Source: Microcystis aeruginosa NIES-843
GTDB taxonomy: Bacteria; Cyanobacteriota; Cyanobacteriia; Cyanobacteriales; Microcystaceae
Assembly (NCBI RefSeq): GCF_000010625.1
Contig: NC_010296.1
Span: 3,540,001 to 3,572,000 of the forward strand
Direction: 5' to 3'
DNA: 32,000 nt
The notes under the pieces are model-generated. The model worked only from the letters and a program-made list of their open reading frames with translations, was not told where the DNA came from and searched no databases. Below, in pieces: positions 5,508 through 30,240 of the stretch (its first letter is position 1; each line of letters starts with the position of its first letter). The translations under genes and the position numbers were made by a program.

Positions 5508-8135
5508 CTAATCTGATAATTCCCCTCGCACGAGAATCACAGTGCAATTAACGGCACGGGCAATCGTCGAGGGGATATTGCCATTTAATAACTGATTGAG
5601 CAGACTCTCTCTAGATGCACCCAAAAGCACCAAGGAACAATCTTCCGATTCTACCAGATTAATTACCGCCTCGGCCGGAGAGGCCGAACGAATCGGTAAA
5701 GGCACGACTGGCTGTGCGATCGCTTTTTGTAAAGATGCTTGTAAAACTTCCAAAGTGGACAGATCTGGCAGTAACTCCGTCGGAGAATAAATTTTACATA
5801 ACCAAAGTTCGGGATGATCCGAAGACTCGGACAAAGACAGCAAACTAGGCAATAATGCTAAAGCTCGTTGAGCATTGGGACCTCCGGCAGTGGGAATCAG
5901 CCAAATCCTTTCCCGATTAAGATCGTTGGGAAAACAATCCTTTGTCCCCAATTTTACCAAGATGGTTTCACAGGGAGCCTCAGCGATCAAAGTATCGACT
6001 GAAAACCCGAAAATCGCCCCAGTAGTGGATTTTTCCCCCGTCCAACCCATAATTAATAAATTGCTGTGTCGTTCGCGAATCGTGGCTAAAATCCCGTCGG
6101 CGATATCCTGAGCCACAGAAATTTGTGTATGAACAGAGATATGCTGCTGTCGGGCTAATCTTTCCAGACGATGAAGTAATTTGCGTCCTTCCCGTGTATC
6201 TACCTTTACTTCCGCCGGAGAACTAAGACGAGGCACAGTAATCACATAGAGACAATCTATCTCATAATTGCGTTCACTGGCGATCGCAGCAGCAATTTTA
6301 AACAAAGCAGTAGCGGTGTCAGGATTGGCAATAGGTAATAAAATCCGGCCTATTCCCACAGCTGGGGAACGAGTTTGATAAACCACATAGGAAGGGGTAC
6401 TGGGTTGGGGCAGTTGACAAACTCCCCCCAATTGATCGGCTTCCACCCGAATAATATCGGTGCGGGTGATGATCCCCACCAGTTTTTGACCGTCGGTAAC
6501 GGGTAAACGGGAAAGCTGATAGCGATTTAAGAGAAATAAAACATCGGTTAAAGCTGCCTGGGGGGCCACAGTAATCGGATTGGGAGTCATGATCTCCCGT
6601 AGGACTGTTTGACTGTTTTTTGATCGCCATTTATCCAGATCACTTTGGGTAAAAATCCCCAATAGTCGCCCCTGTTCCACCACGGGAAAACCGCGATGAT
6701 GGGAACGGGACATAATTTTCACCACTTCCCCCAGGGGTAAATCCGCCGGCAGAATTTCCACCTGCGATTGCATCACATCCATAGCCGACAGATGGGCCAA
6801 CACATCATTAGAAGGGGTTTCTTCGTTGAGAATAATACCACTAGCGGAAAGTAAATGCTGATAGAGGGAACCGGGGTGAATGCTTTCGGCAGTGATATAA
6901 GAAACGGCACAGGTCAACATCAGGGGCAGCACAATATTAAAATTGCGATGCAGTTCAAAGACAATCACGATCGCCGTTACCGGAACCCTGACTACTCCCG
7001 TAAAAAAAGCCCCCATACCGGCTAAAGTATAACTAGGTTCGCTGCCGAAACCCATCATTTTCGTCTCGATTCCCCCCACCAGAAACCCCAAGCAGGATCC
7101 CAACACCAAAGCGGGGGCGAGGAGTCCTCCCGGAGCGCCGGAACTATAGGAGATCATCGTCAGGAAAAAATAGACCACAAAAGCGAGGGCGGTATTCTGC
7201 CAACTTAATTCCCCTGCCAGCAAAAATTCGCGTAAACCCGTATTATCCCGAAAAAAGTCGGGTAAAAAGGCCACTACCGTTCCCGATAACCAGCTGACCA
7301 GACCGATGCGCCAAGCCAGAGATAACCGCCAACGCCGCTGCAGCTGGCTACAAAAAAGGATGCCTTGATTGAATAAAGCCCCCAATAAGCCCGCTAAAAC
7401 CCCCAAAAGGCAATAAATGGGTATTTCTTGGGCAGAGAAGCTAATATTGGCATATTCAGTGATGATCGAGGGGGTATTCTGCAGCATCATCGAAACCACG
7501 GCCCCGGTAAAGGAAGCCACAATCGCCGTTTCTAGGGTCATACTGGAGACATCGCGCATTAATTCCTCGATCACAAAGAGGACGCCGGCGATGGGAGTAG
7601 TAAAACCGGCGGCTAACCCCGCGGCTGCCCCGGCTGCGATCATCTGACGACGGTGATCGGGACTGGTGGGCAGCCAGACGCTTAATTGGGCCGCTAGGGC
7701 TGCTCCGATGTGTACCGTAGGGGCGCGACGACCAAGGGTTAAACCACCGCCAAGGATCAGGATCGCCCCGATCATTTTTACTAGGGCGACCCGCCAAGAC
7801 AGGGGCAAAGGATATTTAGCTAAGGCCGCTTTTACTTGGGGAATACCACCCCCGGCGGCCGCGGGGGAGAAGTGTTCGACAATCCAACCGGCACTGTAAC
7901 CGAGCAGAAAACCGCCGAGGGGCAAAACTAGGAAAGGAGAGGAATTGGCTACTAGATGCACCCGCCAACCACCTAACCAACCGATACCCAATTTCAGGAT
8001 AATAGCGGCAAGGGCGGAGAGAATTCCGATTAAACAGGCTACCAGTAAAGCATAGCGACTATCGGTTGCGCTACGTCCGAAGTGTTGGGATTTAAACCAC
8101 TGACGGAGGTTTTGGTGACGGGCAAAAAGTCCCAT
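5508..8135 (-). CDS. ClC-family chloride channel/transporter fused to tandem CBS and two USP-like domains
   Basis: 875-aa ORF. ClC motifs are GGGIPQVKA, GRRAPTVHIG (GREGP-type) and GAPGGLLAPAL (GxFxP-type), with many TM helices. Two CBS-like segments lie at about residues 455-590. Two universal-stress-protein-like alpha/beta segments follow (ILLPIANPD...LLIMGWTG and IWLIPTAGGPN...LVLLGASR...ILVRG). Confidence 0.9.
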   Translation of the reverse strand: MGLFARHQNLRQWFKSQHFGRSATDSRYALLVACLIGILSALAAIILKLGIGWLGGWRVHLVANSSPFLVLPLGGFLLGYSAGWIVEHFSPAAAGGGIPQVKAALAKYPLPLSWRVALVKMIGAILILGGGLTLGRRAPTVHIGAALAAQLSVWLPTSPDHRRQMIAAGAAAGLAAGFTTPIAGVLFVIEELMRDVSSMTLETAIVASFTGAVVSMMLQNTPSIITEYANISFSAQEIPIYCLLGVLAGLLGALFNQGILFCSQLQRRWRLSLAWRIGLVSWLSGTVVAFLPDFFRDNTGLREFLLAGELSWQNTALAFVVYFFLTMISYSSGAPGGLLAPALVLGSCLGFLVGGIETKMMGFGSEPSYTLAGMGAFFTGVVRVPVTAIVIVFELHRNFNIVLPLMLTCAVSYITAESIHPGSLYQHLLSASGIILNEETPSNDVLAHLSAMDVMQSQVEILPADLPLGEVVKIMSRSHHRGFPVVEQGRLLGIFTQSDLDKWRSKNSQTVLREIMTPNPITVAPQAALTDVLFLLNRYQLSRLPVTDGQKLVGIITRTDIIRVEADQLGGVCQLPQPSTPSYVVYQTRSPAVGIGRILLPIANPDTATALFKIAAAIASERNYEIDCLYVITVPRLSSPAEVKVDTREGRKLLHRLERLARQQHISVHTQISVAQDIADGILATIRERHSNLLIMGWTGEKSTTGAIFGFSVDTLIAEAPCETILVKLGTKDCFPNDLNRERIWLIPTAGGPNAQRALALLPSLLSLSESSDHPELWLCKIYSPTELLPDLSTLEVLQASLQKAIAQPVVPLPIRSASPAEAVINLVESEDCSLVLLGASRESLLNQLLNGNIPSTIARAVNCTVILVRGELSD

Positions 8136-8372: not shown

Positions 8373-8675
8373 GTGGACAGGAAACTATCAGACTAGGCAA
8401 AAAAAACAGGAATAAGTTATCGAACGGCTTGGAGGTGGTGGAAACAAGGGAATTTAACAGGCTATCAATTGCCTTCTGGTACAATTATCATAACGGATGA
8501 CAACCATTCAAAACCCGACTTGATAGCTGGCACTTATGCAAGAGTTTCCAGCGCCGAAAATAAAGACAATCTAGATAGACAAGCTGACCGATTAAAAGAT
8601 TATGCTGTTGCTAGAGGCCACAAAATCTACAAAGTTGTCGAAGAAGTAGGCAGTGGGATAATCGCCAACAATTAG
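8373..8675 (+). pseudogene. IS607-type serine recombinase (TnpA) remnant
   Basis: Single-frame translation reads VDRKLSD*AKKTGISYRTAWRWWKQGNLTGYQLPSGTIIITDD...YARVSSAENKDNLDRQADRLKDYAVARGHKIYKVVEEVGSG. This is an HTH plus the catalytic YARVSS motif. There is an in-frame TAG at 8394-8396. The ORF ends after about 100 codons where roughly 200 are expected, and no tnpB follows. Confidence 0.7.
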
Positions 8676-8697
8676 CCAAAATTCTAGTTGACCCCAA

Positions 8698-9288
8698 TTA
8701 TGTTGGTTCAATAATTTTTATCCCTGCTCTAAATTCCCGCAGTGCTTGAGCATGATTTTCTGTATTAATACAACGCATCAATAAACCTACATCTAAACTC
8801 GGTAAAAGTTGCGATTTACTAACAGCTTCATATCCCTCATTTCCTAAACTATAAAACAATAACTCATCATTCGTCCAAAACCAAACTTCAGGAATTTGTA
8901 ACCGTTTGTATGCTTCCAGTTTATTAATTCCTCCACTACTAACAACCACCTCAATCACTAAATCAGGATGTTTTCTATTTGCTCCCAATTCATAAGATTC
9001 ATCACCTTCTTTTTTAACCTTTTCAAATTCATTTTCTAGGGTGACAGAACCAGTAGGAGTAAAATCTAATTCCAAAAATTCTAAATAAATTTCTACTAAA
9101 GAAGCAATACGTTTTTTGATAGTTTCCTGTTTTTTCCCTGGCATTTTTCTAATCTCCAAAACTCCATCTAAAAAAGATAACCTTAACCCTGGGCGCTCAA
9201 TTAGCTGTTCAACAGCTTTAAATTCTCTCCAGGTTAGGTCACTAATTAAAATTGGTTCTGCTTCCCGTTCAATGAGTGTAGTTATCAT
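8698..9288 (-). CDS. Uma2-family (DUF820) PD-(D/E)XK endonuclease
   Basis: 196-aa ORF. It has the Uma2 hallmarks: a GDESYELG segment, PDLVIEVVVSS, and KLEAYKRLQIPEVWFW. The family is highly expanded in cyanobacteria. Confidence 0.8.
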   Translation of the reverse strand: MITTLIEREAEPILISDLTWREFKAVEQLIERPGLRLSFLDGVLEIRKMPGKKQETIKKRIASLVEIYLEFLELDFTPTGSVTLENEFEKVKKEGDESYELGANRKHPDLVIEVVVSSGGINKLEAYKRLQIPEVWFWTNDELLFYSLGNEGYEAVSKSQLLPSLDVGLLMRCINTENHAQALREFRAGIKIIEPT

Positions 9289-9360
9289 AATTTAAACCCA
9301 AATTTAGAGAGTGAATTTTTATCAATATGATATCATCTAAAAATAGATTATCATAAAAAC

Positions 9361-9452
9361 AGGACTTACGCAAAAAAGACCGAAAGTAGGGGTAATTCAT
9401 GAATTACCCCTACGCAAGAATAAGGCGTTCAGCCACGTCTTGCGTAAGTCCT
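9361..9452. repeat. Nested-palindrome small dispersed repeat
   Basis: Outer 13-bp inverted repeat AGGACTTACGCAA (9361-9373) / TTGCGTAAGTCCT (9440-9452). It encloses the perfect 28-bp palindrome GTAGGGGTAATTCATGAATTACCCCTAC (9386-9413). Confidence 0.85.
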
Positions 9453-9463
9453 AAAAAAACATC

Positions 9464-9748
9464 ATGCAAGCATACAAACTCAAAGGAAAAATTGATCAAT
9501 CTGGTAACTTGCTGATTACCCAACCCCTGAATTTACCCCCCAGAAACGTGGAAATTGTAGTTTGGGCAGCCACAGACACCCTTGATCATACCACAACCCC
9601 AACCACTGAACCAGCACCAGAAACACCAAAAAGACCAACTAAAATCAAGGTTTTGCAAAACTGGTTTGAGAAAACCCAACCTGCACCTCCTGATTTTGAT
9701 CCAGATCAAGCTAAATGGGAATATTTAAAGGAGAAACATAACCTGTGA
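9464..9748 (+). CDS. Putative VapB-like antitoxin (AF2212/DUF104-like N-terminus)
   Basis: 94-aa ORF. The N-terminal KGKIDQSGNLLITQPLNLPPRNVEIVVW resembles small beta-rich antitoxins paired with PIN toxins. Its stop overlaps the GTG of a PIN-like reading frame (GTGA at 9745-9748). Confidence 0.55.
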   Translation: MQAYKLKGKIDQSGNLLITQPLNLPPRNVEIVVWAATDTLDHTTTPTTEPAPETPKRPTKIKVLQNWFEKTQPAPPDFDPDQAKWEYLKEKHNL

Positions 9749-9822
9749 AAATCTTGCTTGATACCAACATAATTATAGATAGTGTAAACTTAAATTGTTC
9801 ACTCATTACCAAAATTCTATGA
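9745..9822 (+). pseudogene. PIN-domain (VapC-like) toxin stub, 25 codons
   Basis: Translation is VKILLDTNIIIDSVNLNCSLITKIL*. LLDTN(I/V) is the canonical first acidic motif of PIN domains. The frame stops after 25 codons where about 130 are expected. Confidence 0.55.
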
Positions 9823-11375
9823 CTCGCTGGTTTAATATTGCCGGTCCCTGTAAAGACGATATCCACTATATGCTCTCTCCCACAGTACGATTACCAGATT
9901 TAGAGGAGCTAATTGAACAAGAAAGTTATTTTGTCCTTCACGCACCACGACAAACAGGGAAAACCACAGCCATGTTATCCCTAGCAAAACAACTTACCGA
10001 TAGAGGAAATTATGCCGCAGTCATGGTATCTGTAGAAGTAGGAAGTGCATTTAATCATGATCCTACTGCCGCAGAATTAGCAATTTTAGGAACTTGGTAT
10101 GATACCATAGATATCCGCTTACCTAAAGAATTACAACCACCTGTTAAACAATGGCGACAGGAAGAACCAGGAAGCAGAATTAAGGCTTTTTTATCAGATT
10201 GGGCAACATCCTTAAACCGCCCTTTAGTATTATTTATAGATGAAATTGATTCTTTACAAGACCAAACATTAATATCAGTTTTACGACAGTTAAGAGATGG
10301 TTTTCCTAATCGTCCTGAAAATTTTCCGACCTCAGTAGGATTAATTGGTTTACGAGATGTGAGAGATTATAAAGTAGCATCTGGTGGTAGTGATAGATTA
10401 AATACATCTAGTCCTTTTAATATAAAAGTTGCTTCTCTGACTATGCGAAACTTTAATCTTGCAGAAGTAGGAGAATTATATCAACAGCATACAGCAGCAA
10501 CTGGACAAATTTTTACACCAGAAGCAATAGAAACAGCTTATGATTTAACCCAAGGACAACCTTGGTTAGTCAATGCTTTAGCTAAAGAAATTGTAGAAAA
10601 AATGGTAAAAGATAGAAGTATTGCTATTACCGAAGAAACCATTTTACAAGCTAAGGAAATATTAATTGCTCGTCAGGATACTCATTTAGATAGTTTAGCA
10701 GAAAGACTCAGAGAAAAACGAGTTAAAAACATTATTGAACCAATTTTAGCAGGGCAAACATTACCAGATACCCTAGCAGATGATCGCCAATATTTAATAG
10801 ATTTAGGATTATTACGACGTGATCCGATGGGGGGATTAGTTATTTCAAACCCTATTTATCGTGAAGTTATTCCCCGTGTTTTAGTACAAGGAACTCAGGA
10901 CAGTTTACCTTTAATTAGTCCTAGTTGGTTGACAGCAAAAGGTGAATTAAATATAGATGCTTTATTAACAGCATTTCTCAAATTTTGGCGACAACAGGTC
11001 GAACCATTATTAGGTAGTACGGTATATCATGAAATCGCTCCACATATTGTATTAATGGCTTTTTTACATCGCGTGGTTAATGGTGGGGGAGTTTTAGAAA
11101 GGGAATATGCAATTGGTAGCGATAGAATGGATTTATGTCTGAGTTATAAAGATGTAATTTTAGAGATTGAATTAAAAGTATGGCGGGATAAAAAGCGCGA
11201 TCCTCAAGCTGATGGGATCGAACAATTAGAGTCTTATTTAGGGCGTTTGGGTTTAGATTTTGGTTGGTTATTTATCTTTGATAGGAGGAAAAATGCTTTA
11301 CCAATGGAAGAAAGATTATCCACTGAAGTTGTGGTGACAGAAAATCAATATAGAATTACTGTGATTAGGGCATGA
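9819..11375 (+). CDS. AAA-type ATPase fused to a C-terminal PD-(D/E)XK nuclease-like domain
   Basis: The ORF track starts at TTG 9795, but ATG 9819 (MTRWFNIAGPC...) is the more likely start. Walker A is HAPRQTGKTT and Walker B is LVLFIDEIDSL. The C-terminal SDRMDLCL..(10)..ILEIELKVW fits a D...ExK nuclease core. Confidence 0.8.
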   Translation: MTRWFNIAGPCKDDIHYMLSPTVRLPDLEELIEQESYFVLHAPRQTGKTTAMLSLAKQLTDRGNYAAVMVSVEVGSAFNHDPTAAELAILGTWYDTIDIRLPKELQPPVKQWRQEEPGSRIKAFLSDWATSLNRPLVLFIDEIDSLQDQTLISVLRQLRDGFPNRPENFPTSVGLIGLRDVRDYKVASGGSDRLNTSSPFNIKVASLTMRNFNLAEVGELYQQHTAATGQIFTPEAIETAYDLTQGQPWLVNALAKEIVEKMVKDRSIAITEETILQAKEILIARQDTHLDSLAERLREKRVKNIIEPILAGQTLPDTLADDRQYLIDLGLLRRDPMGGLVISNPIYREVIPRVLVQGTQDSLPLISPSWLTAKGELNIDALLTAFLKFWRQQVEPLLGSTVYHEIAPHIVLMAFLHRVVNGGGVLEREYAIGSDRMDLCLSYKDVILEIELKVWRDKKRDPQADGIEQLESYLGRLGLDFGWLFIFDRRKNALPMEERLSTEVVVTENQYRITVIRA

Positions 11376-11518
11376 TTGTTATATTTTTTGTTTCACGCAG
11401 AGGCGCTACAGTCGCAGAGAGGAGAAAGGAAAGAGGGATTTTTGCAGATTGTTTTTATCTGTATCCTTGAAAATTGTAGAGTAAACAAATCTGTACGAAT
11501 TACCATTAGGGATAACTT

Positions 11519-11803
11519 TTAGGGATTAGGGAAAAAGACGATTTTTCCCAGAATGCCTAGTATTCCTGTCACCAAAATTCCGACAATGCCAAGAAACCCA
11601 TTAGTAGTAATATTAACCCGTGCATTCAGGTCGTCAATACGCTTTTCTATTTCCATAACTTTAGAATCTAGGGCTTTAATATCCCCTCTTATTTCTGATT
11701 GTCCTATCTCTAGCTTATTAACATCTCTTTGTAAAGAGTCGATTTTTCCCTCAATCCTTGTCAGGACTGCTTCTAGGGAATAAGTTACGGTTTCGTTAGA
11801 CAT
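11519..11803 (-). CDS. Small tail-anchored coiled-coil protein (XhlA-like architecture), paralog 1
   Basis: 94-aa ORF beginning MSNETVTYSLEAVL. It has heptad-rich repeats with the motif KLEIGQSEIRGDIKALD and one C-terminal TM segment (FLGIVGILVTGILGILGKIVFF). Paralogs lie at 11887-12402, 12684-12983 and 21618-21968. Confidence 0.7.
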   Translation of the reverse strand: MSNETVTYSLEAVLTRIEGKIDSLQRDVNKLEIGQSEIRGDIKALDSKVMEIEKRIDDLNARVNITTNGFLGIVGILVTGILGILGKIVFFPNP

Positions 11804-11886
11804 TTTGCTAAACTCCTACTTTTGCTGATTTTTTCTCTAATCGACAAGGCATCAAAATTGCCGATATGCAAGACTAAGGATAACTT

Positions 11887-12402
11887 TTAGGGATTAGGAA
11901 AAAAGACGATTTTTCCCAGAATACCTAGTATTCCTGTCACCAAAATTTCGACAATGCCAAGAAACCCATTATTGCTAATATTCACCCGTACATTCAGGTC
12001 GTCAATACGCTTTTCTATTTCCATAACTTTAGAATCTAGGGCTTTAATATCCCCTTTTATTTCTGATTGTCCTATCTCTAGCTTAGTTAGGGTCTGCTGA
12101 ATAAATCTAAAAACCTTGTTGGATAAGACTTTTGGACTTTTTTCCCCTCAAAAAGTGCCAGCCATTGCGGGGATCGGGGGAAAATTCAGGTACTTTTTCC
12201 CTGAAAATTAGGTAGTTGACCACCTCAAAACTGGTAAAACCCCACACCCCACACCCCACACCCCACACCCTGCCACCACCGAAAAGCTTTTTCAGCAAAC
12301 CCTAGTTAGACGCTCATTAACATCTCTTTGTAAAGAGTCGATTTTTCCCTCAATCCTTGTCAGGACCGTTTCAAGGGAATAAGTTACGGTTTCGTTAGAC
12401 AT
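11887..12402 (-). pseudogene. Tail-anchored coiled-coil protein, paralog 2, split by a MITE
   Basis: 11887-12085 is nearly identical to 11519-11717 (3' part of paralog 1). 12317-12402 carries the shared 5' end (MSNETVTYSLETVLTRIEGKIDSLQRDVN). The two parts are separated by a 219-bp insertion. Confidence 0.75.
12087..12305. mobile_element. 219-bp MITE with 15-bp imperfect TIRs and TTAG flanking repeats
   Basis: Left end TTAGGGTCTGCTGAA (12087-12101) pairs with right end TTCAGCAAACCCTAG (12291-12305). TTAG lies directly on both sides (12083-12086 and 12306-12309). It contains (CCCCACA)x4 at 12240-12267. Confidence 0.65.
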
Positions 12403-23398: not shown

Positions 23399-23831
23399 CG
23401 GTTGGCGAATCTACTTTATTAAAAGACTTTTTGGGCAACAACGCCGCGATTTACAAGTTGAGGTTCGTAAACTAAAAAACACCTTGCCAACAGAAGCATA
23501 CCGTACTCATTCTACAGTCAAACTCTACAGGGCGATTATGGTCGCCATTAAAGAAAAAATCCCTCTCGACCCTTTTGCTTCCCATTTTGCTCTGACTGGG
23601 GCGCTCAAGCATTACGGAAGAGTCAAAAAGATGGGACTACCTGACCGTTATCGCTTATTCTTTCGGGCTATACAAACCGAGGAGTATAAAGCTATTTTTG
23701 TTTTATGGCTAGGCTATCCTCGCAAACAAGGGGATAAAAATGATTGTTATAAAGCCTTCACAAAAATGGTTGAGCGAGGTGATTTTCCCAATTCTCTTGA
23801 CGCTTTAATCCTTGATAGCCAAGAAGATTAG
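23388..23831 (+). CDS. yhaV: YhaV-family type II toxin (ribonuclease)
   Basis: 147-aa ORF. NGWRIYF..., KLKNTLPTEAY, IPLDP, RYRLFFRA...KAIFVLWLG and DCYKAFTKMVERGDFP track the E. coli YhaV sequence from memory along its whole length. Confidence 0.75.
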   Translation: MIVNGWRIYFIKRLFGQQRRDLQVEVRKLKNTLPTEAYRTHSTVKLYRAIMVAIKEKIPLDPFASHFALTGALKHYGRVKKMGLPDRYRLFFRAIQTEEYKAIFVLWLGYPRKQGDKNDCYKAFTKMVERGDFPNSLDALILDSQED

Positions 23832-23975
23832 CTAGTGATAAGGTGGTTGAAAAAGCGATCGTAACCCACAGATACACTTTCAACTGCGCCTCCACAGAAA
23901 GATTGCGATCTAACATTAGCATGAGATCGATGATCGCACTAAGATGATATGATAGTAGTGCATTTTCCTAATTAT

Positions 23976-24163
23976 GGTTCTTCGGTTTGTGTTATGCAAT
24001 GGACGGGGGTTATAAGGGATGAAACCCTTATAGAAACAGACATTACCGCAATTTTTGTCAATTGTTTGCGATCTGGAGCGAACTAATCAATTAAATCTCT
24101 TGCCAGATAAGGATTTAGTCGATTTATGCCCCCATATCGAACCATACCAAGTAACGAAGAACC
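23976..24163. mobile_element. 187-bp MITE family, copy 2
   Basis: Ends are GGTTCTTCG...CGAAGAACC. An 8-bp target duplication CTAATTAT lies at 23968-23975 and 24164-24171. The element ends 10 nt upstream of the higB ATG. Confidence 0.85.
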
Positions 24164-24786: not shown

Positions 24787-24832
24787 CATAACCGAAAAAA
24801 TAGGGGAAGAATAATAATTTTAACCCCCCGTA

Positions 24833-24937
24833 GTGGACTGTTTCAGCTAATTTGGTGTATTAGAAAAATGCTATAAATTCTATAATCTAAGATTTTAAGC
24901 CGAAATCTATTGCCCTATTTTAGTTGAAACAGTCCAG
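24833..24937. mobile_element. 105-bp MITE derived from the adjacent IS630-family element
   Basis: It consists of the two ends of the outer IS (GTGGACTGTTTCAGCTAATTTGGTG... and ...CTATTGCCCTATTTTAGTTGAAACAGTCCAG) with 43 nt between them. It is flanked by TA at 24831-24832 and 24938-24939. Confidence 0.75.
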
Positions 24938-25680
24938 TAGTGGACTGTTTCAGCTAATTTGGTGCAATAGATTCTCCCGATTCCTCCTCCTCAAACACAG
25001 GATAAAGATGTTTCAGCTTGACCCTAGCATCGCTGGTCGTAAACGTCCATATTACTGTAGATGCAGTCTGATTACGTTCTTTTTGCCAGGTTTCTATCTC
25101 CCTTTTCAGTTCTTCCTTGCTAGAAATCCTTCTATCTAAACATTGCCTCGATAAGACGCTTAGTTCAGTTTCGGCTACATTTAACCAGCTACCATTACGA
25201 GGTGTGTAATAAATTTCCAGTCTTCTAGCTAAACGATGAGCAACGGGTGCTGGAAATGCTTCATAAAGCGAGGCTATGTTATGAGTGTTGAGATTATCAC
25301 AGACGAGCTTGACTTTTCGAGCCTTTGGATAGTCCACATCCAATAATTGACGAATTTCTTCTGCCCAATCTATTCGGGTTCGACTATCTCGGTTACTCAC
25401 CCGTCTCCATCCTCGATGGGGGTCAAAAAACATGAACAAGGCTTGAACCCCTTCACGACTATAGTGATAGTCTTCTTTTTTATCTTGTCCAGGTTGCATG
25501 GGTATCGGAGGGTAAACTTCTCCAAGTAGTTGCTTTGATGCTTCATCCATCGCGATTAACGGTTCTTCTTCCGATGGCTGAGTGCCATACAGGTCAAGGA
25601 CAACTTCCATCTGGGCAACAAATCGGGCTAAATCCTGTTCCGGAATACAGTATCTTTGGGTTTTCCAAGGGCGTAATTGG

Positions 25681-25688
25681 TTTTTTTT
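25681..25688 (-). other. Candidate -1 programmed ribosomal frameshift site (A AAA AAA C)
   Basis: This is a T8 run on the plus strand, i.e. A8 on the coding strand. The orfA frame reads CTA AAA AAA ACC. A -1 slip gives ...LKKNQLRPWKTQRY..., joining the orfA HTH region to the orfB catalytic region. Confidence 0.6.
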
Positions 25689-26111
25689 AGAGTACGCCAC
25701 ACCGTTGGACTGGAAATCTCGGTGATAATTTGTCTTTGTTTGAGTTCCGAGGTTAATAGTCGGATTGTCCACTCGGCTCGGCCAGATGGTGGCTCCGAAC
25801 AGCACAGGGCAATGATTTGGGCGGCGGCGGCTCCATCAACTTTTGCCGGAGTGGGGGGAGTTTTTCTCGATTTCCGTTCTAATGCTGGTTTTTCGCCTTT
25901 TTGAAGAAATCTTTGACGAATACGTCCCACTGTATTTCTATGAACTTCTAAAGCTTCGCCTATTTCTTCATCTGTCCATTTCCTTTTCGCCTGTTCTCCC
26001 TCGTCACACATCAGCAAAATCCGAGCGTGGAGAATTTTTTTAGCTGGTGCATAGCCATTACGACTGATTTGTTCGAGGTTTTCTCTTTGTTCCCCTGTTA
26101 GATTGACTTTA

Positions 26112-27061
26112 TAGTTATTTCAAATAAGAACGAGACACTAGGCGACACAATAAGTACGAATAATTTCATCAAGGGGTGTCCCCACAGGAGCATACATTCT
26201 TGCCCTCTTTAATGCACTAAAATCATGTTCGATATCATTTAAATCAGGAGAGTATTTTGGCAAAAACACGACCTGATGACCTGCTTCCTCTACCAGTTGT
26301 TTAATGACTGTCTTCCGATGAATTGGTGCATTATCCATAATTAATACTGATGTTATGGTTAGAGAGGGCAACAAATATAAAGATAACCACCCTTCAAAAC
26401 CTTCGGCATTCAGGCTTCTCGTAAATACCATCGGTGCAATAAAGTCTTTTTTTCCCTTTCTTCTACCAGCGACAAGGTTCTCTCTTTTTCCTCGTTTTCC
26501 TTGTCTATCTCCAAAGACTTTCTTCCCTTTTTTTGACCAAGCATAAAAACAGGCTTGAAATTCTTCAAACCCTGACTCATCAATAAATACAAGGCTTTCA
26601 CTTCCATATATTTTAATCAATTCTCTCAGCACTCTGTAGTATTTCATTCTTTCTTCTCGGTTTCTTTCTCTATAACGAAGTTCCTTCTTTTTTCTGGTAA
26701 CTTTCATGTTTTTTAAGGCATAGCAAATGGCACTTGGTCTCACTCCAAATTTCTCGGCTCTGTCTCTTAATCTTGCCTCGGGATTTTCTTGGACATCTTT
26801 TGACAGTGCTTTCCAGTCCAGCTTTCTCTGACGGTGTTTTACCTTTGTTGCTTCCAGTTTTTCCCTACCTAGCCATCTATATATCGTCGCTCTTCCTATA
26901 TTAAATAGAGCGGCGGCTTTGGTTATGCTTCCCCCATTCTCTACATAATCGATTACTTTTTTTCTCAAGTCTAGGCTATAAGACATTTTTCTGTATGGGT
27001 TGCTCGTTTCTCTTGATTTTACCTTATTTTTCCCTCGTCTCACACTTATTTGAAATGACTA
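26112..27061 (-). mobile_element. IS630-family insertion sequence (inner element, 950 bp) nested in the outer IS
   Basis: TIRs are TAGTTATTTCAAATAAG (26112-26128) and the reverse complement of 27045-27061, TAGTCATTTCAAATAAG. A TA target duplication lies at 26110-26111 and 27062-27063. Removing the element plus one TA restores the outer orfA reading frame. Confidence 0.85.
26138..26986 (-). CDS. IS630-family transposase (apparently intact)
   Basis: The track ORF is 301 aa from 27043. The probable start is the internal ATG at 26984-26986 (MSYSLDLRKKVIDYV). It has an HTH (ITKAAALFNIGRATIYRW) and a DDE/D triad context (FIDESG, IMDNAPIH, YSPDLNDIEHDF). Confidence 0.85.
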   Translation of the reverse strand: MSYSLDLRKKVIDYVENGGSITKAAALFNIGRATIYRWLGREKLEATKVKHRQRKLDWKALSKDVQENPEARLRDRAEKFGVRPSAICYALKNMKVTRKKKELRYRERNREERMKYYRVLRELIKIYGSESLVFIDESGFEEFQACFYAWSKKGKKVFGDRQGKRGKRENLVAGRRKGKKDFIAPMVFTRSLNAEGFEGWLSLYLLPSLTITSVLIMDNAPIHRKTVIKQLVEEAGHQVVFLPKYSPDLNDIEHDFSALKRARMYAPVGTPLDEIIRTYCVA

Positions 27062-27142
27062 TATCTCGCCGACCTCTTCCCATGATTGATGTCCTCTGCT
27101 TGTTCGAGCTATTGCCCTATTTTAGCTGAAACAGTCCAGTAG

Positions 27143-27225
27143 GGTGGATTAGCGCAGCGTAATCCACCATTACATCAATTATTGAATAACCATAGATTAG
27201 GTGCGTTACACTTCGTTAACGCACC
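27143..27225. repeat. Two sibling hairpins (9-bp stem, 8-nt loop) of the small-dispersed-repeat type
   Basis: GGTGGATTA-GCGCAGCG-TAATCCACC (27143-27168) and GGTGCGTTA-CACTTCGT-TAACGCACC (27200-27225). Confidence 0.8.
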
Positions 27226-27377
27226 CTACAAGAGCGGCGATCGCACTAACCGGACAGCGATAACCTTTGCAACTCAACAGGTAGTCTATGCTCCGTTCCG
27301 GTTCAGCGCAATGTTAGACCAGCACCCACCCGCCGCTCAAGGGGTAGTTGCCGATTTGCCGAACCCATTGCCCCCCA

Positions 27378-28355
27378 TCAGGACTTCGGAGGTAGCTTGG
27401 GCAGTTCGATCCACAGTTCCAGCACACCGGGCTGTGGCTTCACGCCGGAGAAATTCGTAAAGTCCGCCGTCTGCACCGTCAGATTTTTATAGCCTAGCTG
27501 TTTCAGGGCATTCGTTGTATCTTTCGCCAGTTTGCCCGCCGCGGACGCATCCTTATTATCGTTATTGTTGAAGAAACGAACCTCGTGTAGCCCCGCGGCA
27601 CCGCCATCGCGATCCTCGGGAGGCACATTGTATTTGGCGGCTTGGAGAGCGGTACGCAGGGCCTTCGCCTGCTCGCGGGGCGCACCGGCGAACTGAATGA
27701 ACACCGTGGGCATCTTCTGCGCCTCGGCGCTCTGGCGCACTTGTTCATCCGTCCGTCGCACAAGATTCGCAACATCGGTCTGCACCTTAGTCACCGTCGA
27801 ACCGTCCTTGGCCGTCAGCGTGCTAGTGCCGGGTAGCTTCTCGACGATCTGGCTCAGTCGATCGACCTGCTTGCCGAGGGCGGCAACCCTTGTCATGTTT
27901 TCATCGAGCAACGTTGTGATAGGTTTCTCGCCAACCGTCACGATCAGAGCCTTGGTTCGATCGTCGAGAGCTTTCTGCCGAGTCTCCAATGTGTTGATAG
28001 TATCGATAGTCGGGCCCACCTCGGCGAGCTTCTTCTTGGCTGAAGCGATAAACTCGGCATTCTGTTTGGCTAACTCCTCCGCGATACCGAGCGTTACATT
28101 GATACGCTCGCTCTTCTCCTCTGCCTGACCGGTGATCTCCTTGATTTTTGCGTCTACCATAGAGGTGATGATCTGGTTCCAGCCTAGGCCGGCGATGACC
28201 AAGGCAAAGGCAAATGCCACACCGGCAAGGCCGTAGCGCCACATCAGGGTTGCCTCGACGCGCTGGATGACCTTCTCCTCGATGCGTCGCTCGATCAGCT
28301 CCAGTATCCGCTCATCGATCTTTTCGAGTTCGGGATTCTGTCCTTTGTCAGCCAT
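27378..28355 (-). CDS. Orphan G+C-rich membrane-anchored coiled-coil protein with unassigned C-terminal domain
   Basis: 325-aa ORF. The ATG is preceded by the GGAGGGAAGG run. Two 60-nt lines hand-counted at about 53% and 63% G+C, against 37% for one line in patch 1. It has one TM segment (WRYGLAGVAFAFALVIAGLGW), a long heptad-rich region, and a ~100-aa C-terminal domain (TVFIQFAGAPREQAKALR...GVLELWIELP). No family was recognised by eye. Confidence 0.75.
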   Translation of the reverse strand: MADKGQNPELEKIDERILELIERRIEEKVIQRVEATLMWRYGLAGVAFAFALVIAGLGWNQIITSMVDAKIKEITGQAEEKSERINVTLGIAEELAKQNAEFIASAKKKLAEVGPTIDTINTLETRQKALDDRTKALIVTVGEKPITTLLDENMTRVAALGKQVDRLSQIVEKLPGTSTLTAKDGSTVTKVQTDVANLVRRTDEQVRQSAEAQKMPTVFIQFAGAPREQAKALRTALQAAKYNVPPEDRDGGAAGLHEVRFFNNNDNKDASAAGKLAKDTTNALKQLGYKNLTVQTADFTNFSGVKPQPGVLELWIELPKLPPKS

Positions 28356-28416
28356 CTCGCCTTCCCTCCGAGCTTTGTTCTACTAATTTTCCTTTTAAAA
28401 ATGCTAACTATTAATT

Positions 28417-28600
28417 ATACCGCTCACTGCGGTCTAGCACCCTCATCTATCCTACTATACCACCTCCATCGGTCTAACACCCCCTTAATCATACCTAATA
28501 CCGCACTGTGCGGTTTAATCACCTCAATTAGGGAATAATAACCGCAGAGGGTGGTCTGGTATTCCCTTCAAGTGGATTTTACCGCATTTGCCGATGACGG
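28417..28600. promoter_or_regulatory. Five phased (~40-41 bp) direct repeats with ACCGC-N5-GCGGT-type cores in a divergent intergenic region
   Basis: ATACCGCTCACTGCGGTCTAGCACCC (28417), ATACCACCTCCATCGGTCTAACACCC (28457), ATACCGCACTGTGCGGTTTAATCACC (28498), ATAACCGCAGAGGGTGGTCTGGTATTCC (28538) and TTACCGCATTTGCCGATGACGG (about 28580). Function is unknown. Confidence 0.5.
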
Positions 28601-28695
28601 AAGAAGCACAGTACCCTCGACTGTTAGAACAAGTCCGAGAAGTCATGCGTCTCAAGCACCTCAGCTTGAAGACGGAAAAATTACATTCGAGATTT
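28594..28695 (+). pseudogene. Tyrosine recombinase N-terminal (SAM-like) fragment, truncated by a MITE
   Basis: ATG 28594 gives MTEEAQYPRLLEQVREVMRLKHLSLKTEKLHSRF. This matches the LLDQ(V/L)RE.IR.KHYS.RTE pattern at the N-terminus of integron-type/XerD-like integrases. The frame runs into the MITE at 28696 and nothing integrase-like follows. Confidence 0.55.
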
Positions 28696-28882
28696 GGCTC
28701 TTCGGTTTGTGTTATGCAATGAATGGAGGTTATAAGAGATGGAACCCTTATAGAGAAAGGCATTTAGCGATTTTTGTCAATTGTTTTTGATCTAGAGCGA
28801 ACTAATCAATTAAATCTCTTGCCAGATAAGAATTTAGTCGATTTATGCCCCCCTATCGAACCATACCAAGTAACGAAGAACC
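28696..28882. mobile_element. 187-bp MITE family, copy 3
   Basis: GGCTCTTCGGTTTGTGTTATGCAATG...CCAAGTAACGAAGAACC is near-identical to copy 2. No clear target duplication was seen. Confidence 0.8.
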
Positions 28883-28920: not shown

Positions 28921-30240
28921 CTATTGACACAAACGTTGATAAACTGTGGCTAAAGCTCGGACATCACCGACGTTACCCGGGAAAAGAACCACAGGTAGAT
29001 TAGGAAAGAGATGATGATCGGCTGCTGTACGGACCATGGAGACACCGGGGAGAATCTGACCGAGTAAACGGGCCGATTGCAGGCTTAAACCCGTACTTAA
29101 GACATCATTAGAGGTAATTCCGCCTTTACTGATTAAAAAACTGATATCACTGGGTAAACCCTTAACAATGTCCATTAACAGGGTGGAGACGGCAACCCCA
29201 AAATCAAGGCGTTTCTGCACAGAAGCAAAGGTTAACTCTTGCCGACTGGTATAGATCACGGGGGTTTGTTTATTTTTGTGAATAAGCTTGACTTTTTCCA
29301 GAGCTTGTGCTAGGAGTTGATCTCGTTGCTCAGGACGATCGCGCAATGCCGTCACATCGATTTCGACTCCGACGGTGTTGGGTTGTTGAAGCAGTTCATC
29401 TAATTGTTGGCTAGTTTTTTTGACGTGGGAACCGACGATAATTGCCCCGGCTTCCCCCGTGGGCTTATACTTACCCATAGATTCGGGTGCGATCGGTTGA
29501 GTTCCTAAATTAGCCAAAGAAGTTAAAATACTGGCGGCACTACGGAATAAAAATTTTTTTCCTTCCCCTGCGGCGGTTAAAATATCTTCAGCAAAGCGAT
29601 CGAGATCCGCTTGAGTTTCCCCATCTACCACCCCACATTGATTATTTTTGAGCTTTTGCAGTCGTTCTAAACTACCTTGACGGATATCTGCCAGTAAAAA
29701 TCTTTCCACATCATCTGCTTTAATTTTACCTTTCGTTTTCTCCTCCACATAATCCGGCAGATAACTGTAATGGTAGGCAAAAACCGAATCGCGAGCAAAT
29801 TCCGTCTCGTGGACGGGAGTGGGAACGCCATCGATGATTAAATAGTGAATACTATCACGGGTGATTCTACCTCCCTCAAAAAAGGCTGGAATCAGGAAAT
29901 GTGCATCAAAACCGCCCAATTCTTCGGCAATAACATCAGTTTCGATCGGATAATGCCCGCGCAGGGTAGAATCGGAACGACTAACCACCAAAAAATCCTC
30001 GATTCCCTCTTTAGTTAAGGCAGTTTTCAGGTTATGACAGACTTCTCTGGTGACAGACTCGGCTTTTTCGGGGGTTAAAGCGCGAGTATTGGTCAAAACA
30101 AAGAAAATTGGCGCATTATCTGCCAATCCCAAGCGGAGAGTATCTTCATCCCACCGCATCAATAACAGACAACTATGGACTGTTTGGGAACCTGTCGGGT
30201 CGTCATCTAAGACTATAATTTTAGGTCTATTATTGCTCAT
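28921..30240 (-). CDS. Four-carbon acid sugar kinase family protein (DUF1537/YgbK-like)
   Basis: 439-aa ORF. The N-terminal IIVLDDDPTGSQTV motif and the two-domain length are typical of the family. The C-terminal nucleotide-binding region reads ISKGGITSND. Confidence 0.75.
   Translation of the reverse strand: MSNNRPKIIVLDDDPTGSQTVHSCLLLMRWDEDTLRLGLADNAPIFFVLTNTRALTPEKAESVTREVCHNLKTALTKEGIEDFLVVSRSDSTLRGHYPIETDVIAEELGGFDAHFLIPAFFEGGRITRDSIHYLIIDGVPTPVHETEFARDSVFAYHYSYLPDYVEEKTKGKIKADDVERFLLADIRQGSLERLQKLKNNQCGVVDGETQADLDRFAEDILTAAGEGKKFLFRSAASILTSLANLGTQPIAPESMGKYKPTGEAGAIIVGSHVKKTSQQLDELLQQPNTVGVEIDVTALRDRPEQRDQLLAQALEKVKLIHKNKQTPVIYTSRQELTFASVQKRLDFGVAVSTLLMDIVKGLPSDISFLISKGGITSNDVLSTGLSLQSARLLGQILPGVSMVRTAADHHLFPNLPVVLFPGNVGDVRALATVYQRLCQ

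Follow-up and report, generated by a model that had tools for sequence, protein, structure and literature searches.

Gene content and composition of the locus

The window examined here is a 32,000-nt stretch of Microcystis aeruginosa NIES-843 (contig NC_010296.1, positions 3,540,001 to 3,572,000), and all coordinates below are numbered within it. It carries a short foreign segment that contains a single gene, together with the following adjoining features.

24938–27141, reverse strand: outer of two nested IS630-family elements, the inner one at 26110–27063 (Pfam HTH_Tnp_IS630 and DDE_3; terminal inverted repeats)
27200–27248, no strand assigned: right-hand junction element, consisting of the HIP1 sequence GCGATCGC (27237–27244) and the hairpin GGGTGCGTTAACGAAGTGTAACGCACC (recurrent junction in eight gene-free loci)
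27249–28405, reverse strand: foreign single-gene segment, 1157 nt, G+C 0.560 (homology breaks against other Microcystis loci)
27378–28355, reverse strand: gene for a 325-aa bitopic membrane protein (ORF with ATG start)
28365–28369, reverse strand: GGAGG ribosome-binding site, 9 nt 5' of the ATG (sequence reading)
28406–28550, reverse strand: resident leader with three hairpin repeats, ending in a -10-like TATAAT (repeat analysis, other strains)
28695–28882: 189-nt MITE-like repeat, with a second copy at 23975–24163

An earlier note on this DNA had singled out positions 27230–28370 as unusually G+C-rich, and measurement places the raised stretch at about 27200 to 28370. The ORF has a G+C content of 0.566 and a GC3 of 0.690, compared with 0.34–0.52 and 0.20–0.54 for the remaining 18 ORFs that reach 120 aa and with a window mean G+C of 0.441. 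It forms the G+C maximum of the window (next peak 0.547), and its value is reached in only 0.6% of 978-nt windows, every one of which overlaps this ORF. The long antisense ORFs that had been pointed out are also present, with lengths of 143, 92, 64 and 54 aa, and are an expected by-product of the high G+C. The strong GGAGG site is indeed uncommon here, preceding only 2 of the 19 large ORFs in the window.

Borders of the segment and the resident leader

The limits of the segment were set by comparing the window with other Microcystis loci and reading the junction sequences exactly. Between these limits lie a 50-nt 5' leader, the ORF and a 129-nt 3' tail. Homology breaks at 28405/28406 in five loci that lack the gene (L030, L032, L033, L040 and L042), and at 27247/27248 in eight such loci (L030, L032, L033, L034, L039, L040, L043 and L044).

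Upstream of the segment, the resident leader contains three repeats at 28417–28526, spaced 40–41 nt apart, each with an ACCGC-N5-GCGGT hairpin. Its TATAAT occupies 28414–28419, 8 nt from the segment junction, and the same leader stands 5' of unrelated genes in the five loci that share the upstream break. The resident leader probably serves as the promoter of the imported gene. A consensus scan for promoters and terminators found nothing above shuffle expectation and left the leader TATAAT uncalled owing to its poor -35 region, and an Rfam search of the leader and the tail returned zero matches at E≤1. At the other end, the combined HIP1 and hairpin element is a dispersed Microcystis repeat, with further copies at L002:330, L035:540 and L041:2210. 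Both borders are reused in other strains.

These observations revise the view that IS elements, a repeat array, an integrase stub and a MITE bound the segment: its true borders are the leader repeat and the HIP1 and hairpin repeat. The array itself was correctly recognized, corresponding to the three hairpin repeats of the leader, and the reported MITE corresponds to the 189-nt MITE-like repeat with its second copy. The nested IS630 elements do adjoin the segment, but they are missing from the equivalent site in NIES-102 and others; since NIES-102 has the segment but not these elements, they represent a later insertion beside it and neither bound nor explain the acquisition.

Exact junctions around a single ORF also raise the possibility of an integron-type cassette captured at an attI-like site beside an integrase remnant. 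A possible N-terminal integrase stub (putative, about 33 codons) lies on the opposite strand, followed by the leader with its putative promoter and then the ORF, and both segment junctions read GTT|AG. However, the other occupants of the site start with ATGCGG, GGGCTG or CTTTCG, so that no conserved core site (GTTRRRY) exists, and the predicted folding of the 142-nt 3' tail is indistinguishable from that of its shuffles (z = 0.12), which leaves no attC-like structure. Each locus moreover has one leader rather than an array, and the right-hand junction is the dispersed HIP1 and hairpin repeat. As an attC fold and a shared core site are both lacking and each locus has a single leader, we rejected the integron cassette, which is effectively refuted.

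Strain distribution and origin of the segment

The segment occurs in nine independent Microcystis assemblies with 0–2 mismatches per 1157 nt, whereas the core gene next to it shows 19–24 mismatches per 1320 nt between strains. The encoded protein is 100% identical in M. viridis NIES-102 and M. ichthyoblabe FBCC-A1114. Presence across strains is patchy: alongside the nine carriers, the segment is missing from all 16 Microcystis metagenome or WGS loci located through the neighbouring gene. Exact matches to the neighbouring kinase-like protein were confined to short contigs that stop right behind that gene, and they carry no information on presence or absence. An assembly artefact can be dismissed because two complete genomes, as well as independent assemblies from NCBI, JGI, ENA and Logan, show the same segment and junctions.

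Among GTDB species representatives, one match is a Microcystis record and the nine remaining ones belong to Proteobacteria or proteobacterial symbionts, including a Methylococcales-type symbiont, Methylomarinum, Halopseudomonas, Motiliproteus, Kiloniellaceae, Paracoccaceae and Endoriftia. The gene lies outside the cyanobacterial core. Its closest relatives (56–64% amino acid identity) reside on contigs of 54–66% G+C, while the nearest DNA match is 73% identical and lies on a 2.9-kb contig. Because the named relatives of the neighbour gene are scattered over Desulfobacteraceae, Thiodiazotropha and alphaproteobacterial MAGs, no donor lineage was assigned. Searches of plasmids, phages and viral contigs yielded zero copies of the protein or the leader, and a BFVD fold search gave nothing significant.

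GC3, junctions and strain comparison agree with the earlier description: the segment consists of little more than one gene, has a foreign composition and was acquired recently. The segment is a real and recent import of foreign DNA into a variable site of the Microcystis chromosome, and the donor was probably a proteobacterium-like organism of higher G+C.

The receiving islet lies between a four-carbon-acid-kinase-like gene with lpxA and lpxB on one side and a toxin-antitoxin and minCDE region on the other; the imported gene is about 6 kb from minCDE.

Architecture of the encoded protein

Hydropathy and an AlphaFold2 (AF2) model agree with the predicted layout of a charged N-terminus, one transmembrane (TM) helix, a helical rod and a compact terminal domain. 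The four parts are encoded as follows.

28236–28355, reverse strand: residues 1–40, charged helical cytoplasmic N-terminus with the family motif LELxERRLxEK (alignments, positive-inside statistics)
28179–28235, reverse strand: residues 41–59, single TM helix YGLAGVAFAFALVIAGLGW (hydropathy)
27720–28169, reverse strand: residues ~63–212, periplasmic alpha-helical coiled-coil stalk of about 150 aa (AF2, profile matches)
27381–27722, reverse strand: residues 212–325, alpha/beta domain of divergent LytR_C type (AF2, Foldseek, Pfam)

Residues 41–59 form the sole hydrophobic peak (KD19 = 1.85, next best 0.55), and an equivalent TM helix is found in 117 of 120 relatives. In 105 of those 117, K and R residues are more numerous before the helix than after it, indicating an N-in orientation; by this positive-inside rule, the C-terminal part is predicted to be extracytoplasmic behind its membrane anchor.

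In the AF2 model, helices span residues 8–74, 84–143, 146–172 and 188–214, and profile searches of the PDB match the stalk to coiled-coil proteins. The stalk has a hydrophobic period of 3.57 in the window copy, a signal that none of 300 shuffles reach, and a family median of 3.51. The description of the rod as heptad-rich thus holds at the family level, the window copy being less clean.

A divergent LytR_C-type domain at the C-terminus

The C-terminal domain was modeled with high confidence (pLDDT 96.2) and has the order b-a-b-a-b-b. In the family alignment R260, E313 and W315 are invariant, and V218, Q221, L237, P245, D269, A273, L276, P307 and G310 nearly so. With both models, the best Foldseek match in the PDB is 2m5y, an NMR model of the C-terminal domain of Rv0431/VirR (probability 0.94, E 0.017), which is also the only high-probability fold match of that search. 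The superposition itself is weak, however, with a TM of only 0.45/0.43 and an rmsd of 4.9 Å over 110 columns.

Profile evidence points the same way. Against Pfam LytR_C (PF13399), the isolated domain scores 17.5 bits (E 0.008), below the gathering threshold of 22.2, and the full-length protein gives E 1.7; Pfam and NCBIfam searches with the full protein returned nothing near threshold. Among 71 relatives, 49 match LytR_C at E≤1 and 8 at E≤3e-4, which approximates the gathering score. The best of these values is 1.2e-7, and P0024 reaches 27.0 bits, above the 22.2 cutoff. The LytR_C-matching relatives align over their full length to the window protein at E<1e-33, so that membership, judged from sequence profiles, extends to the window protein by transitivity. 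Sequence searches of the PDB with the protein, the family profile and the best LytR_C-scoring relative found only coiled-coil or chance matches and never reached 2m5y. The terminal domain, which the earlier note could not place in any family, can thus be assigned by profile as a divergent, remote member of the LytR_C type of cell-wall domain. Pfam searches find no LCP catalytic domain (PF03816) in the window protein, and no transferase activity is therefore expected.

The overall layout also resembles that of FtsN, and we considered whether the protein might be a SPOR-like division protein of septal peptidoglycan, an analog of FtsN, DedD or DamX with affinity for denuded glycan strands at the division site. 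SPOR (PF05036) is weakly matched by 23 of the 71 relatives at E≤1 (best 4.7e-5), one relative adjoins zapA, and the window gene is close to minCDE. Nevertheless, the window protein itself has no Pfam match to SPOR, and at E≤3e-4 SPOR is found in 1 of 71 relatives against 8 of 71 for LytR_C. The predicted b-a-b-a-b-b order differs from the b-a-b-b-a-b RNP-like fold of SPOR, the top 50 Foldseek matches in the PDB include no SPOR structure, and the closeness to minCDE is not a conserved feature, as the gene is an accessory insertion. We consider this assignment improbable. PG_binding_2 gave weak matches in 6 of the 71 relatives; together with the weak SPOR matches, these speak for a link to the cell wall.

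The wider family and its genomic neighbors

The gene had been described as an orphan, an impression that follows from a word-indexed protein search with only 9 matches (4 in a profile repeat). An exhaustive profile search instead identified 1181 cluster representatives at E≤1e-3, of which 158 reach E≤1e-30. Members are nearly all full-length, at about 320 aa. The named relatives are Proteobacteria, and the family is mostly proteobacterial; its taxonomy, neighbors and fusions are drawn from the best 150 of the 1181 matches. The reported lack of a characterized homolog does stand. Neither Pfam nor NCBIfam has a model for the family, and there is no literature on it.

Several members are associated with cell-wall functions. 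In P0092, an Amidase_2 domain (muramoyl-alanine amidase, E 1.5e-17) is fused directly 3' of the C-terminal domain, a single case among the matches listed (best 150 of 1181). The close relative P0004 adjoins a PG_binding_1 and Amidase_2 gene, and another member sits between zapA and an OmpA-family lipoprotein gene. The C-terminal extensions of four longer relatives have zero Pfam matches; among them, a suggested SPOR-like extension in P0024 was discarded as unsupported. An all-against-all comparison of flanking ORFs from 11 loci, together with Pfam searches of 20 neighbors, revealed zero shared partners. No neighbor is conserved across taxa, so that the genomic context does not point to a function.

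Three contigs have a gene for a large secreted-type hydrolase directly beside the family member, namely a PG_binding_1 and Amidase_2 protein (L012), a T6SS_Tle1-like lipase/DUF2235 protein (L025) and a Peptidase_C1 protein (L011). Such neighbors might suggest that the protein serves secreted hydrolase toxins as an immunity factor or accessory, and that its periplasmic domain neutralizes or escorts the adjacent effector. Immunity proteins are toxin-specific, however, whereas these three enzymes are unrelated; the DUF2235 neighbor is itself widespread, with 3183 relatives at E≤1e-20. Ordinary genes flank the family member at eight other genomic loci, and the Microcystis copy has no hydrolase beside it. 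This role appears very unlikely.

According to another alternative, the protein would serve in anti-phage defense or exclusion, as a sensor or effector that is membrane-anchored and interchangeable with several others in a defense-type islet. The slot lies among toxin-antitoxin modules, with HigB/HigA and YhaV in NIES-102 and ORFs in L032 and L040 that we take to be HicAB-like and XisI-like. Other occupants behind the same leader are likewise anchored by an N-terminal TM helix, combined with Response_reg in L030 and L040 and with a P-loop domain in L032. The patchy distribution and recent spread would also be consistent with defense, as would the P0009 contig, on which genes for an integrase and an AlpA-type protein lie at a distance of about 6 kb. 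On the basis of the toxin-antitoxin-rich islet and the defense- or signaling-like occupants, the locus also fits a defense role. The protein itself argues otherwise: it lacks effector domains of the nuclease, NTPase, TIR or pore-forming kind, PADLOC (PADLOC-DB) returned only weak coiled-coil noise at residues 50–215, and PHROGs gave no match for it. Furthermore, the proteobacterial copies lie among ordinary housekeeping genes without a partner, and zero copies were found on phages, plasmids or viral contigs. Overall, a defense role is unlikely.

Proposed origin and function

The account that we favor, with a little better than even confidence, is that of an imported segment encoding a stalked periplasmic wall-binding or scaffolding protein of LytR_C type. 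The 1157-nt foreign piece at 27249–28405 would have entered Microcystis by landing in a hypervariable islet and then spread between Microcystis lineages by recombination, with the TATAAT-ending leader and the HIP1 and hairpin element as anchors. Transcription would probably start from the resident leader, and translation would use the segment's own strong GGAGG site. The product would be a bitopic inner-membrane protein whose stalk extends into the periplasm, may oligomerize the protein, and holds the LytR_C-type domain, some 105 residues long, at the height of the cell wall. There, a conserved exposed beta-sheet face (Q221, R260, E313 and W315) may bind peptidoglycan or a wall-remodeling partner. 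By analogy with VirR and Cei, the protein could act in envelope integrity, tethering or scaffolding, and its role is most likely envelope- or peptidoglycan-associated. Known partners of LytR_C are the LCP enzymes of Gram-positive bacteria and Actinobacteria, which counts against this account.

In a more far-reaching interpretation, which we regard as speculative and unlikely, the slot would serve specifically for expression of incoming genes, and the imported gene would found a Gram-negative branch of LytR_C proteins with a ligand of its own. The leader at 28406–28550 would supply the promoter and the HIP1 and hairpin element would close the unit, while strains would exchange unrelated, mostly single-gene membrane-anchored modules between both anchors. 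The G+C-rich gene would then be a cross-phylum import that gives its carriers a new periplasmic wall-binding protein.

The favored account, an imported stalked LytR_C-type protein, bears on a poorly understood accessory domain that has been studied almost solely in Actinobacteria, where solo proteins combining a TM helix with LytR_C control envelope permeability and vesicle release. A proteobacterial family of over a thousand clusters that bears a divergent LytR_C-type domain on a predicted periplasmic coiled-coil stalk would extend this domain to diderms, and it offers simple systems for finding the LytR_C ligand, aided by the natural amidase fusion. The locus additionally provides a clean, datable cross-phylum import with base-exact junctions and apparent spread between Microcystis lineages, making it a useful case for studying envelope diversification in bloom-forming strains. 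Nothing here overturns current understanding.

Comparison with known systems

The closest parallels are VirR (Rv0431) and Cei (Rv2700), which share with the window protein a single N-terminal TM helix, an extracytoplasmic C-terminal domain of LytR_C type and the absence of a catalytic LCP domain. Envelope integrity depends on both, and both interact through LytR_C, by which VirR associates with itself and with LCP proteins (PMC11832169, PMC7831098). VirR lacks the coiled-coil stalk of about 150 residues and the conserved cytoplasmic helix of the window family. Hosts also differ, being diderm Proteobacteria and Microcystis for the window family but Actinobacteria for VirR and Cei, and the family has distinct motifs (VFxQFAG, EVRYF and KPxxGxLELW) and no sequence-level match to Rv0431.

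LCP ligases such as Lcp1/Rv3267 of M. tuberculosis and LcpA of C. glutamicum likewise carry an extracytoplasmic LytR_C accessory domain behind a TM helix, but they possess the catalytic domain PF03816 that is missing from the window protein. FtsN, DedD and DamX resemble it in their short cytoplasmic N-terminus, single TM helix, long periplasmic spacer and small C-terminal wall-binding domain, whereas their SPOR fold order departs from the predicted b-a-b-a-b-b. As for the site, it is comparable to the flexible islands of Microcystis and other bacteria, with variable content between conserved flanks, recurrent breaks in short dispersed repeats, and toxin-antitoxin, MITE and IS elements nearby. 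It differs from them in having a specific three-repeat leader as its upstream anchor; since the TATAAT of this leader abuts the junction, unrelated imports would all be placed behind the same putative promoter.

Composition and coding content of the G+C-rich segment

The window has a G+C content of 44.1%, and its maximum in 978-nt sliding windows (0.576; the second independent peak reaches 0.547) lies in the flagged region, where G+C steps up at ~27200 and down at ~28370 (100-nt steps), in agreement with the G+C-rich segment that the earlier note had placed at 27230–28370. As that note also held, the segment is essentially one gene: its sole substantial ORF is 27378–28355 (−), encoding 325 aa from an ATG start. 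The G+C of this ORF is 0.566 (GC1/GC2/GC3 = 0.61/0.40/0.69); the 18 remaining window ORFs of at least 120 aa span 0.34–0.52, with GC3 of 0.20–0.54. Only 0.6% of 978-nt windows equal or exceed the value of the gene, and each overlaps it. The GGAGG ribosome-binding site (28365–28369), 9 nt 5' of the ATG, is indeed uncommon, being found upstream of just 2 of the 19 large ORFs. The long antisense ORFs seen previously are present (143, 92, 64 and 54 aa) and are a chance product of the G+C-rich coding strand. Elsewhere, the window holds a low-G+C block at 8500–12000 (0.33–0.37; GC3 0.20 in ORFs 8698–9288 and 9795–11375) and moderately high G+C (0.546–0.547) at 3361–4338 and 7041–8018, inside ORFs 3292–4593 and 5508–8135.

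Boundaries and flanks of the foreign unit

Microcystis contigs were retrieved via a conserved neighbour, a 439-aa SBD_N/NBD_C kinase-like protein (28921–30240) adjoining lpxA, and none of the 16 Microcystis loci recovered in this way carries the G+C-rich gene. Homology with the window breaks recurrently at 28405/28406 (five loci) and 27247/27248 (eight loci). The junction sequences show that the left conserved flank invariably ends ...GGTATAATTAATAGTT and that the right conserved flank invariably starts (T/A)AGTGCGATCGCC...GGGTGCGTTAACGAAGTGTAACGCACC, a HIP1 site followed by a hairpin. These recurrent breakpoints and junction reads therefore delimit a foreign unit of 1157 nt, 27249–28405, with a G+C of 0.560.

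Features flanking the foreign unit (L numbers denote other genomic loci or contigs compared)
24938–27141: outer IS630-family element (Pfam HTH_Tnp_IS630 and DDE_3; inverted repeats)
26110–27063: inner IS630-family element, nested in the outer one (Pfam HTH_Tnp_IS630 and DDE_3; inverted repeats)
27200–27248: dispersed Microcystis repeat, HIP1 (GCGATCGC) plus 27-nt hairpin, the recurrent right-hand breakpoint; also at L002:330, L035:540, L041:2210 and others
28406–28550 (−): leader (possible promoter or operator), three repeats spaced 40–41 nt, each with an ACCGC-N5-GCGGT hairpin, ending GGTATAATTAATAGTT at the junction; copies in other strains at L030:6760–6835, L032:9025–9100, L033:7452–7609, L040:8610–8686 and L042:660–735
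28695–28882: MITE-like repeat, 189 nt, with a second copy at 23975–24163; copies 87–95% identical

The nested IS elements, repeat array and MITE described in the earlier note thus correspond to the IS630 pair, the three hairpin repeats of the leader (28417–28526; no Rfam match) and the 189-nt MITE-like repeat. The outer IS630 transposase is in two pieces (HTH ORF 25628–26017, DDE ORF 24954–25805), and additional copies of its terminal repeat at 24821–24973 resemble a solo-end or MITE remnant. A similar second hairpin, GGTGGATTAGCGCAGCGTAATCCACC, lies at 27144–27169 beside the IS630 end. Strain NIES-102 is collinear at 99% with window 32000–27109 and 24940–22000 and lacks the intervening 2.2 kb, that is, the nested IS630 elements; because it bears the gene without them, the elements came in after the gene and do not account for its presence. 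Three Microcystis plasmids (FD4, NIES-2481 and one further strain) carry the MITE-like repeat as well, and the block 28550–28872, containing one copy, is absent from several strains (L002, L003, L006–L008). The putative integrase stub of the earlier note corresponds to 28600–28698 (+), whose translation, EEAQYPRLLEQVREVMRLKHLSLKTEKLHSRFG, is truncated by the MITE-like repeat and may resemble the N-terminal part of an integron-integrase-like tyrosine recombinase of cyanobacteria.

Spread among Microcystis strains and alternative contents of the site

The protein is 100% identical in Microcystis viridis NIES-102 and M. ichthyoblabe FBCC-A1114, and M. aeruginosa NIES-843, the source of the window, has a copy with at least 90% identity. 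Among nine independent Microcystis loci the foreign unit shows 0–2 differences per 1157 nt, versus 19–24 per 1320 nt in the adjacent kinase-like gene, which points to a recent arrival and to spread between lineages through recombination. Near-identity in nine independent loci also excludes an assembly chimera. The recent acquisition proposed earlier is well supported for a unit of defined ends whose presence is patchy across strains (nine loci with the unit, 16 recovered loci without the gene).

In other strains, unrelated genes of ordinary G+C (0.36–0.47) stand behind the same leader:

L030:6916–7608 (same gene in L040): 230-aa protein with a TM helix and a response-regulator receiver domain (E 5e-11)
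L032:9205–10149: 314-aa TM and P-loop NTPase-like protein, plus a small coiled-coil protein
L042:852–1583: 243-aa TM protein
L033: multi-gene block

The occupants in L030/L040, L032 and L042 are likewise N-terminally membrane-anchored; a membrane-tethered receiver domain with no nearby kinase, as in L030/L040, is unusual. The remaining variable stretches are made up of small toxin-antitoxin-like modules. In strains with other contents, a 155–250-nt duplicate of the YhaV toxin gene 3' end and downstream DNA (window 23668–23917) directly precedes the HIP1 and hairpin junction (L030:7753–7907, L032:10430–10627, L040:9532–9781), which points to earlier rearrangements inside the toxin-antitoxin region. 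The locus is a hypervariable islet, its content swapped between repeat anchors. An integron cassette was considered and rejected, as each locus has a single leader, the junctions of the different contents share no core site and the 3' tail shows no attC-like fold.

Protein family and architecture

The description of the protein as an orphan does not hold. An exhaustive profile search of 1.84 billion representatives yielded 1181 matches with E ≤ 1e-3, of which 361 lie at ≤ 1e-10 and 158 at ≤ 1e-30. Almost all are ~320 aa long and aligned end to end; a word-indexed search gave 9 clusters. Together with three metagenomic sequences (56–64% identity; contigs of 54–66% G+C), the Microcystis protein makes up a separate sub-clade, outside which relatives show at most 34% identity to it. 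In a single peptide pattern scan, which was not exhaustive, organism-named genome matches were Proteobacteria or proteobacterial symbionts (a methane-oxidising symbiont, Methylomarinum, Halopseudomonas, Motiliproteus, Kiloniellaceae, Paracoccaceae and Endoriftia), and no cyanobacteria besides Microcystis were found. Searches for plasmid, phage or viral-contig copies found none. The gene very probably reached Microcystis from another phylum, entering a replacement slot framed by repeat anchors.

A single hydrophobic segment occupies residues 41–59, with an equivalent TM helix in 117 of 120 aligned relatives. Lys/Arg residues are in excess in the 15 positions before versus after this helix in 105 of the 117 (mean difference +2.4), which predicts a cytoplasmic N-terminus and a periplasmic remainder. 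The N-terminal helix carries the family motif LELxERRLxEK. Residues ~63–212 are predicted to form a helical stalk, and the family profile matches coiled-coil proteins of the PDB; the hydrophobic period of the stalk is 3.57 residues in the window protein (reached in 0 of 300 shuffles), with a family median of 3.51. This architecture and the history of import, taken together, are very probably correct.

The conserved core is the last ~110 residues. Across 120 sequences R260, E313 and W315 are invariant, and conservation reaches 90% or more at V218, Q221, L237, P245, D269, A273, L276, P307 and G310. From strand alternation, we infer that Q221, R260, E313 and W315 share one sheet face, with the hydrophobic V218/I220/F222 and L312/L314 on the opposite one. 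An AlphaFold2 model of this domain (71-sequence alignment; pLDDT 96.2) has the order b-a-b-a-b-b. With both models, the lone standout in Foldseek searches of the PDB was 2m5y, the C-terminal LytR_C domain of M. tuberculosis Rv0431/VirR (domain model: probability 0.94, E 0.017, TM 0.45; probability of all other hits ≤ 0.15). Independently, the Pfam LytR_C model recognises 49 of the 71 relatives at E ≤ 1, and 8 of the 71 score close to its gathering threshold (best E 1.2e-7); one relative, P0024, scores 27.0 bits against a membership cutoff of 22.2, and the window copy, at 17.5 bits, falls under it. We conclude that the end domain, previously regarded as unassignable, belongs to the LytR_C superfamily as a divergent branch, with homology established via relatives and supported by the fold. 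The runner-up domain is SPOR, and the overall architecture would fit a SPOR-like division protein. Weak SPOR matches occur in 23 of 71 relatives, but just one reaches E ≤ 3e-4, the predicted strand/helix order differs from the SPOR fold, and Foldseek retrieved no SPOR structure.

There is no Pfam or NCBIfam model for the family, and the searchable literature does not mention it. The family is undescribed, and what it adds, modest but real, is the pairing in diderm bacteria of a periplasmic coiled-coil stalk with a divergent LytR_C-type domain.

Putative function and comparison with known systems

Several observations link the family to peptidoglycan. The metagenomic relative P0092 (455 aa) has a TM helix, coiled coil and LytR_C-like domain followed directly by a fused Amidase_2 (residues 324–429; N-acetylmuramoyl-L-alanine amidase domain, E 1.5e-17, with matches to phage endolysin amidase families too); it is the sole informative fusion among the 150 relatives listed, and the C-terminal extensions of four other long relatives have no Pfam match. 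The gene of P0004, a close relative, adjoins a PG_binding_1+Amidase_2 gene, and some relatives show weak SPOR or PG_binding_2 matches. In the methane-oxidising symbiont of Gigantopelta aegis, a family member lies between the cell-division gene zapA (L015:5474–5785) and an OmpA-family lipoprotein gene of glycine-zipper type (L015:7549–8184), a neighbourhood not seen in the other genomes holding family members.

Hydrolase-type neighbours in three cases make an immunity or escort protein for such enzymes a suggestive alternative, but the three are mutually unrelated and the pattern is not general; no conserved operon partner was found across the family loci compared. The amidase fusion has been seen in one relative, and a defence function would be just as compatible with the islet setting in Microcystis. 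A defence or exclusion protein would also agree with the interchangeable TM proteins of the site; this explanation is weakened by the housekeeping gene contexts in Proteobacteria and by PADLOC and PHROGs searches, which gave no match outside the coiled coil.

The most economical reading, which we hold tentatively, is a role in envelope integrity, tethering or scaffolding. The inner-membrane-anchored protein would oligomerise through its coiled coil, and the wall- or partner-binding end domain would be held at the peptidoglycan layer. VirR and Cei each combine one TM helix with a LytR_C domain, which mediates VirR self-association and LCP ligase binding; when either protein is lost, the envelope of mycobacteria becomes more permeable and its sensitivity to peptidoglycan-targeting drugs increases (PMC11832169, PMC7831098). 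These two proteins are the nearest analogues of the window protein and the source of this working model.
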